DNA of 64,000 nucleotides from Escherichia coli. GTDB lineage: Bacteria > Pseudomonadota > Gammaproteobacteria > Enterobacterales > Enterobacteriaceae. Below, in pieces: positions 9,237 through 11,202 of this stretch. Where the stretch lies: assembly GCF_050920415.1 (NCBI RefSeq), contig NZ_CP169309.1; one strand, written 5' to 3'. The notes below the pieces were generated by a model, which worked only from the letters and a program-made list of their open reading frames with translations, was not told where the DNA came from and made no database searches. Both the position numbers and the translations under genes were made by a program. The stretch's first letter is position 1; every line of letters begins with the position of its first letter.

Positions 9237-10408
9237 ATGCTGAGCAGAGAGGACTTTTACATGATAAAGCAAATGCGCCAGCAAGGTGCGTATATTGTTG
9301 ATATTGCCACTCAGGTTGGTTGCTCTGAGCGGACTGTCAGACGGTACCTGAAATACCCGGAACCTCCGGCCAGAAAAACACGCCACAAAATGGCCAAACT
9401 CAAGCCGTTCATGGACTATATCGACATGCGTCTGGCTGAGAATGTCTGGAACGGCGAGGTCATCCTGGCGGAAATCAAAGCGATGGGTTATACCGGTGGC
9501 CGTTCCATGTTGCGTTACTACATCCAGCCCAAACGTAAGATGCGGCCATCGAAGAAAACGGTTCGCTTCGAAACTCAGCCCGGTTACCAGCTACAGCATG
9601 ACTGGGGAGAAGTTGAGGCTGAGGTTGCCGGGCAACGATGCAGGGTTAACTTCGCGGTTAATACGCTGGGGTTCTCACGTCGCTTCCATGTCTTCGCGGC
9701 ACCAAAGCAGGATGCTGAACATACCTATGAGTCACTGGTCCGCGCCTTTCGCTACTTCGGCGGCAGCGTGAAAACCGTGCTGGTCGATAACCAGAAAGCC
9801 GCAGTGCTGAAAAATAACAACGGGAAGGTGGTGTTCAACTCCGGGTTCCTGCTGCTGGCCGATCACTATGGCTTCCTGCCACGGGCCTGCCGTCCACGAA
9901 GGGCCAGAACCAAAGGTAAGGTGGAACGGATGGTGAAATACCTCAAGGAAAACTTCTTCGTCCGGTACCGCCGGTTCGACAGCTTCGCCCATGTTAATCA
10001 GCTACTGGAGCAGTGGATGGCTGACGTTGCCGACAGGCGGGAACTTCGCCAGTTCAGGCAGACACCGGAACAGCGCTTCACGCAGGAACAGGTGCATCTG
10101 CAGGCGCTGCCAGGTACGGACTTCGATACCAGCTACTTCGATATCCGTCATGTCTCCTGGGATGGCTATATCGAGGTTGGCGGGAACCGTTACAGCGTGC
10201 CGGAAAGCCTGTGTGGCCAGCCGGTATCAATACGGATCTCGCTGGATGATGAACTGCGATTTACAGTAATGAGCAACAGGTAGCATCGCACCGTCTCTGT
10301 TCGGCTGTATACGGCTGGCAGACCGTGCCGGAGCATCACGCCCCACTCTGGCAGCAGGTCAGTCAGGTGGAACACAGGCCGTTGAGTGCCTATGAGGAGC
10401 TGTTGTGA
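9237..10408 (+). pseudogene. istA: IS21-family transposase IstA, disrupted by a 1-nt frameshift near 10258
   Basis: ORF ends ...ISLDDELRFTVMSNR* at 10283; the frame continues as [48 protein letters not shown] to the canonical TGATG overlap at 10406-10410. Confidence 0.7.
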
Positions 10409-11202
10409 TGCATGAACTGGAGACACTGCTGGGTCGTCTTAAAATGGAACATCTGGGCTACCACGTTGAAAGCCTGCTGGAGCAGGCGGCCAAAAAAGAA
10501 CTGAACTACCGCGAGTTCCTGTGCATGGCGTTGCAGCAGGAATGGAACGGGAGGCATCAGCGCAGTATGGAGTCCCGGCTGAAACAGGCCCGCTTCCCGT
10601 GGGTCAAAACGCTGGAGCAGTTCGACTTCGGCTTCCAGCCAGGTATCGATCGTAAGGTCGTCCGTGAGCTGGCCGGGCTGGCGTTCGTGGAGCGTAGCGA
10701 GAACGTGATCCTGCTGGGTCCGCCTGGTGTGGGTAAAACGCACCTGGCAGTCGCTCTCGGGGTAAAAGCGGCGGACGCTGGTCATCGGGTGCTGTTCATG
10801 CCACTGGATAAGCTGATCGCCACACTCATGAAGGCAAAACAGGAAAACCGGCTGGAAAAACAGCTACAGCAGCTTGGTTATGCCCGGGTACTGATACTGG
10901 ATGAGATAGGCTATCTGCCGATGACCCGCGAGGAAGCCAGTCTGTTCTTCCGGTTGCTGAACCGTCGATATGAAAAAGCGAGCATCGTGCTGACGTCAAA
11001 TAAAGGGTTCGCCGACTGGGGAGAGATGTTCGGCGATAACGTGCTGGCAACGGCAATCCTGGATCGACTGCTACACCACTCAACCACACTGAACATCAAA
11101 GGAGAAAGCTACCGGTTAAAGGAAAAACGCAAAGCGGGAGTGCTGGCAAAAAACGCCACGCCAATCAGTGATGATGAAATGGCGGCAAGCGGACAACATT
11201 AA
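10408..11202 (+). CDS. istB: IS21-family helper ATPase IstB
   Basis: Walker [16 protein letters not shown] and Walker [10 protein letters not shown] motifs; ATG at 10408 overlapping the istA stop. Confidence 0.85.

Follow-up and report, generated by a model that had tools for sequence, protein, structure and literature searches.

The locus and its prophage setting

The window analysed here, a stretch of 64,000 nt from an Escherichia coli genome (contig NZ_CP169309.1), begins inside a lambdoid prophage at the DUF968, RusA and Q genes; the left end of the prophage lies outside the view. Its right end (35291–36574) adjoins a 5′-truncated ydfJ, which places the integration in ydfJ. The lysis cassette (6288–7525) consists of two holin genes followed by the gene for a GH108 endolysin, and no Rz/Rz1-like spanin gene was noticed in it at the position equivalent to that of lambda. 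Between the endolysin gene and bor (11420–11713, on the opposite strand) lies a small gene of the phrog_33497 family, encoding ∼94 aa on the plus strand. This gene now extends from 7591 to 11337, split by two insertion sequences into three pieces (7591–7635, 8972–9135 and 11264–11337). When the pieces are joined in frame, the 94-aa product matches phrog_33497 from end to end (E = 1.2e-48), a family of unknown function. An older frameshift, at a run of six G residues (8992–8997), is found in the gene of every relative, and PGAP gives it the tag ‘frameshifted’ there. The same G-run frameshift occurs at 100% identity in at least 10 related prophages. A break that is so widely conserved might correspond to a slippage site rather than to a dead gene.

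The upstream insertion is an apparently intact IS2, a member of the IS3 family, which occupies 1331 bp on the plus strand (7636–8966) and has the ends TAGACTGG and GCAAATCCA. It is 99.9% identical, over 1331 of 1331 nt and free of gaps, to IS2 in many E. coli genomes. A target-site duplication, GTCAG, flanks it at 7631–7635 and 8967–8971, as read from the sequence and from reconstruction of the empty site. On the plus strand, orfA (7727–8092) encodes 121 aa and carries, near 8045–8051, the A6G slippery motif that plays a role in the −1 frameshifting of IS2, and orfB (8050–8955) encodes 301 aa matching the IS2 TnpB model NF006918 with 727.6 bits. The second insertion, described below as ISEc62, starts 169 bp further downstream. 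The two elements together are not a composite transposon, since their families differ and a separate target duplication flanks each.

Removing both insertion sequences in silico, together with one copy of each duplication, leaves a sequence of 997 nt, which is present at 100% identity in four complete E. coli genomes and at 97% or more in ten. Because the reconstructed sequence is found unaltered in existing genomes, the boundaries of both elements are proven.

A copy of ISEc62 and its ends

The element downstream of IS2 is an ISEc62-type insertion sequence of the IS21 family, 2124 bp long (9136–11259, plus strand). Aligned with a ‘master’ copy that is identical in at least nine loci (L007–L015), it has the same nucleotide at 2122 of 2124 positions, i.e. 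it is 99.9% identical to these copies. DNA identity is 98–99.9% to copies whose IstA is assigned by NCBI to the ISEc62 family, the PGAP label for the IstA of the closest copies being ‘IS21-like element ISEc62 family transposase’. Near-full-length copies occur in 865 records among the 5,426 complete E. coli genomes searched, so chance is of no concern for the existence of the element; a 65-mer covering the frameshift site discussed below also finds a 97% match in Shigella plasmids. As judged from its sequence, the segment 9136–11259 belongs to a known insertion sequence, ISEc62, of which it is an ordinary copy.

The left limit (9136) and the right limit (11259) are the positions where identity to independent copies stops. 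Both limits are established by the empty site as well as by L002, a copy that inserted independently and is bordered on each side by a different 4-bp duplication, GCTG. In the window, the target-site duplication is ACGA (9132–9135 and 11260–11263), read from the sequence and from the empty site. The ends are of the TG...CA form, with TGTCAGCGCCAA on the left and TTGGCGTTGACA on the right. The left terminal inverted repeat region (9136–9193, plus strand) contains a repeated motif at offsets 1 (TGTCAGCGCC) and 43 (TGTCCGCTCC), and the right region (11180–11259, minus strand) contains it at offsets 1, 42 and 65 from the end (TGTCAACGCC, TGTCCGCTAT and TGTCCGCTTG). This distribution of the TGTC motif, at two offsets on the left and three on the right, fits the multi-site ends of IS21-family elements, where such motifs bind IstA. 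Beyond its TG...CA ends, the element displays a DDE transposase IstA with a helix–turn–helix (HTH), an AAA+ helper IstB, a TGATG junction between the two genes and a target duplication within the 4–8 bp range of the family. An autonomous element also requires an istA that reads through in one frame, which the window copy, as sequenced, does not have.

istA, istB and the missing G

As read in the window, istA (9237–10283, plus strand) encodes 348 aa, made of 341 native codons followed by seven out-of-frame codons and a TAG stop. Its product matches the IS21 transposase model NF033546 with 280.9 bits, for a cutoff of 160. The native part comprises the HTH, the DDE core (D122, D184 and E230) and most of the β-barrel; Pfam assigns the HTH, an rve domain (residues 113–222) and Mu-transpos_C_2 (residues 291–357), the last corresponding to the β-barrel. 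Alignment with 12 other copies shows a single G to be missing from the window after 10257, where GG is reduced to G (10257–10258, plus strand; CTGCGGAT in the reference versus CTGCGAT in the window). Only one other difference separates the window element from the master sequence, a T in place of C at 10261. This T is synonymous and is also present in a paralogous copy with intact istA, which reads CGGATTTAC, in the sister genome MFDS1022581. Thus, the change from GG to G is the only lesion in the window copy of ISEc62.

The true 3′ end of istA, codons 342–390 and the stop, is displaced to the −1 frame (10258–10408, plus strand). With the G restored in silico, istA becomes a gene of 1173 nt that encodes a 390-aa IstA, ends with a TGA at 10406–10408 and differs at four amino acids from the intact ISEc62 IstA of plasmid pDEC15A-1. 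The restored TGA overlaps the istB start codon (ATG, 10408–10410) and so forms the TGATG junction at 10406–10410; in the sequence as it stands, the istA stop precedes this junction by 122 nt. Downstream, istB (10408–11202, plus strand, within an ORF that opens at 10405) is intact and encodes a 264-aa AAA+ helper ATPase matching NF038214 with 297.4 bits, for a cutoff of 200. Its Walker A (GPPGVGKT) and Walker B (LILDE) motifs lie at residues 104 and 162, respectively, and a GAGGAG Shine–Dalgarno motif is located 8 nt upstream of the ATG. The exact IstB protein is present in 134 blocks of the assembly collection. A promoter and terminator scan of the interval 7400–11800 gave nothing beyond shuffled expectation.

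A preliminary description of this DNA had proposed an IS21-family istAB element beside an IS2, with an IstA frame that stops at 10283 through a 1-nt frameshift near 10258 and a C-terminus that continues in another frame to a TGATG overlap. All of this is borne out, the family assignments by the NF033546 and NF038214 matches and the 1331-bp IS2, the frameshift by the alignment, and the displaced C-terminus by its position in the −1 frame. The two different insertion sequences are indeed neighbours, at a spacing of 169 bp instead of the ∼300 bp first given, and the range initially assigned to the element (9237–11202) spans its two genes, the element itself extending from 9136 to 11259.

A two-frame istA could in principle be read by programmed −1 ribosomal frameshifting that sets the dosage of IstA, as in IS3-family elements such as IS2. 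The required change is indeed −1, and the two frames overlap at 10253–10283. Against this, istA is a single frame in all 12 aligned copies, including the orthologue in AP025751.1 and the paralogue with T at the variant position, and inspection of the 31-nt overlap (ACTGCGATTTACAGTAATGAGCAACAGGTAG) found no slippery heptamer of the X XXY YYZ type. Recoding is, to our knowledge, not described for the IstA of IS21-family elements. With a single frame in every relative and no slippery heptamer in the overlap, programmed frameshifting is rejected and its probability regarded as negligible.

Order of the insertions and distribution of the deletion

The identical ISEc62 insertion, with the same junctions and the same duplication and without IS2, is found in MFDS1022581 and in AP025751.1 (L012). 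MFDS1022581 is almost the same strain as that of the window, with 2 SNPs and no gaps over 28,409 nt of unique flanking chromosome. In AP025751.1, the orthologous insertion has an intact istA. Since sister genomes hold ISEc62 without IS2, one of them with intact istA, ISEc62 was first to insert, its transposase gene still intact, in an ancestor shared by these genomes, and IS2 followed. Comparison of the junctions thus shows, at the level of sequence, an IS2 insertion confined to the lineage of the window and posterior to that of ISEc62.

The mutated allele has been sought in several collections. Of the 283 places that match in 89 complete E. coli genomes, none has the exact 65-mer carrying it, nor does any of 651 places in a set of 72,556 plasmids; a 37-mer is absent from species-representative genomes; and an exact look-up of the 348-aa truncated IstA in the assembly collection returned no record. 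As the 12 other aligned copies, including that of AP025751.1, have the G and the allele has no exact match in these collections, the G deletion is private to the window.

Other differences between the window and its near-clonal sister MFDS1022581 are unevenly distributed. About 130 SNPs are clustered in two patches of the prophage, one from the terminase to the head genes (∼13300–19000) and the other in the tape-measure region (∼25700–26200), and the remainder of the prophage is nearly identical. These patches look like the result of recent recombination with other lambdoid prophages. The two MFDS1022581 copies of ISEc62 that were examined (L001 and L028) share a reduction of A6 to A5 in istB, at the equivalent of window position 10492, and each carries a frameshift annotation; gene conversion from one copy to the other may be the cause, or else a homopolymer error that is systematic in this assembly.

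Assembly artefact or real mutation

Compared with three relatives, the window contains four private frameshifting indels, and the missing G after 10257 is one of them. The other three affect tail genes: an insertion of CG at 22756–22757 in the gene of the tail assembly chaperone gpG, the loss of one G at 28575 (G3 to G2) after ∼68 codons of the gene of the tail tip protein gpJ, and the loss of one A at 32744 (AA to A) in a tail fibre gene of 861 aa. All four are located in DNA that is multi-copy in MFDS1022581, where ISEc62 occupies four places and the tail region six. The assembly of this sister genome has private indels of its own in the same repeated DNA, at positions 10039, 10492 and 16736. 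When the recombined patches are set aside, indels are as numerous as isolated SNPs. On our own assumption of an indel rate about one-tenth that of point mutations, and with 2 SNPs per 28 kb of flank, ∼0.2 real private indels are expected in 35 kb. Errors of homopolymer length that persist in repeats are typical of long-read assemblies after polishing (PMC8812927; PMC12632941).

That the four private indels are all in repeats and none in the 28 kb of unique flank, when ∼0.2 are expected, is why an assembly artefact is rated slightly above a real mutation. The missing G is accordingly somewhat better explained as a consensus error, in line with the warning in the preliminary description that a sequencing error might be responsible, a caveat that proves well founded. 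This case is circumstantial. One of the four indels, the CG insertion in gpG, is no homopolymer error and speaks against an artefact; moreover, a prophage with two insertion sequences may be free of selection and could accumulate real frameshifts.

A specific source of error was also considered. At the deletion, the reference copies have CGGATC, and a Dam or Dcm motif is found no more than 5 nt away from two of the three 1-nt deletions (P of about 0.013). The idea of an error tied to the Dam site (GGATC) was dropped, since the intact MFDS1022581 paralogue has the same T, so the T at 10261 is genuine and the window copy need not have a GATC at this site.

If the deletion is real, the window holds a decayed, non-autonomous copy of ISEc62, a reading whose probability falls somewhat short of even. 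The deletion is, after all, present in the sequence as given, and the three further private frameshifts in tail genes would suit a prophage that is decaying freely. Insertion sequences also abound in the sister lineage, with IS2 at 31 places in MFDS1022581, and pseudogenes of insertion sequences are common in E. coli. What weighs against a real mutation is the excess of private indels over expectation, their confinement to repeats and the comparable number found in the sister assembly.

The sequence of events that we favour runs as follows. ISEc62 transposed into the phrog_33497-family gene between the endolysin gene and bor, generating a 4-bp duplication; IS2 inserted later, 169 bp upstream, in this lineage only; and the missing G after 10257 would be an error of the consensus that escaped correction in repeats, an artefact status that we infer. 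Should this be correct, the window copy would be a fully functional ISEc62. Taken as a whole, the account of a standard ISEc62 copy joined by a later IS2, with a missing G due to the consensus rather than to mutation, is given slightly better than even chances.

Consequences for IstA if the deletion is real

The frameshift falls after codon 341, within the β-barrel domain Mu-transpos_C_2. Restored IstA aligns over residues 1–388 with the IstA of IS5376, of known structure (8b4h; E = 2e-82), and its Tyr343 pairs with Tyr343 of IS5376. A truncated IstA would thus consist of residues 1–341 and seven foreign residues, keeping both HTH domains and the DDE core and lacking the last strand or strands of the β-barrel, the IstB-docking Tyr343 and the whole C-terminal helical extension. 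In IS5376, IstB ATPase stimulation and DNA integration are both substantially lower with the variants Y343A/R345A and IstA(1–287) (PMC11208146). Integration also declines when Gln369, in the C-terminal extension, is mutated, and the β-barrel contributes to the stability of the IstA tetramer (PMC10122671).

By inference from these mutants, the truncated IstA could bind the ends of the element but would neither be activated by IstB nor integrate, and the copy would be unable to move itself. The IS5376 mutants and the structure mapping in this way lend support to loss of function in the event of a real mutation. The functional effect is nonetheless borrowed from a distant homologue of another host, whose identity to ISEc62 IstA is well below the level of close relatives, and the consequence of a cut after residue 341 would be an extrapolation from Y343A/R345A and IstA(1–287). 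The inactivation of IstA put forward in the preliminary description is therefore structurally reasonable, given the cut after residue 341 with loss of Tyr343 and the tail, and applies only if the deletion is real.

Since its ends and istB are intact, the window copy would be movable in trans by intact copies located elsewhere. In the case of a real deletion, istB would be uncoupled from the translation of istA and would still have its own predicted Shine–Dalgarno motif. One may also imagine that a truncated IstA, if made, acts as a trans-dominant inhibitor of other ISEc62 copies, through occupancy of the ends or poisoning of mixed tetramers. The model would be Tn5 and IS1, whose transposition is damped by truncated forms of the transposase; for ISEc62, such an inhibition is considered very improbable.

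The private indels of the tail genes raise a similar dilemma. If those at 22756–22757, 28575 and 32744 are real, the prophage cannot build tails; otherwise, they are consensus errors in repeated DNA.

Proposed hotspot and domestication, and practical value

Two different insertion sequences in a short interval had been taken as the mark of an insertion hotspot and as a sign of prophage domestication. In favour of a true hotspot between the endolysin gene and bor are the 169-bp distance between the two elements and the presence of insertion sequences in other members of the prophage family. The latter include an ISEc12, of the IS21 family, upstream of the holin genes in JCKP02 (L005, 15437–17739) and an ISCro1, of the IS66 family, in the head region in MS 119-7 (H126). 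The count of independent events argues otherwise. Having the same junction and target duplication, the ISEc62 insertions of the three genomes represent one ancestral event and count once; IS2 adds one further event, restricted to the window. Ten related prophages have the empty site, and the other insertion sequences of the family are located at other positions. With only two independent events in the interval, the hotspot is not sustained.

Domestication fares no better. Both elements reside in a small accessory gene that is frameshifted in every relative, and nothing indicates a benefit for the host. A hotspot whose two insertion sequences mark domestication by the host is consequently considered improbable; both insertions are a matter of colonization by insertion sequences or of decay, not of co-option by the host.

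The biological weight of the locus is small, as it concerns a routine copy of an already known element in a prophage accessory gene. Its practical use lies in annotation and quality control, with a name (ISEc62), exact boundaries and an order of insertion (ISEc62, then IS2). The istA frameshift and the three tail-gene frameshifts should be marked as potential errors that polishing left behind in repeats; until this has been checked, none of the four should count towards prophage decay or domestication.

Comparison with known elements

The near-identical copies on E. coli chromosomes and plasmids to which NCBI PGAP gives the name ISEc62 share with the window element the IstA/IstB layout, the TGATG junction, TG...CA ends with multiple repeats and a duplication of 4 bp. 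The window copy differs from them by the absence of one G after 10257, which splits istA, and by the synonymous C-to-T change at 10261. More distant is an element annotated as IS21 in phage fiAA91-ss, with ∼86% DNA identity to the window element. The gene pair and the architecture of the ends are alike in IS21 of plasmid R68.45, the prototype of the family; the two are different insertion sequences by the species-level naming of ISfinder, and the window has no tandem (IS21)2 junction.

At the protein level, the reference system is the IstA/IstB pair of IS5376 from Geobacillus stearothermophilus (8b4h and 8q4d). The order of domains is shared and comprises HTH-1, HTH-2, the DDE domain, the β-barrel and the C-terminal extension; the IstA proteins of IS5376 and ISEc62 have the same numbering at Tyr343, and E233 of the former is aligned with E230 of the latter. 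The neighbouring IS2 is canonical for its IS3 family, with 1331 bp, imperfect inverted repeats, a 5-bp duplication, and orfA and orfB in 0 and −1 frames with the A6G motif. IS2 and the ISEc62 copy thus represent unrelated families brought side by side in one prophage gene, and they form no composite.
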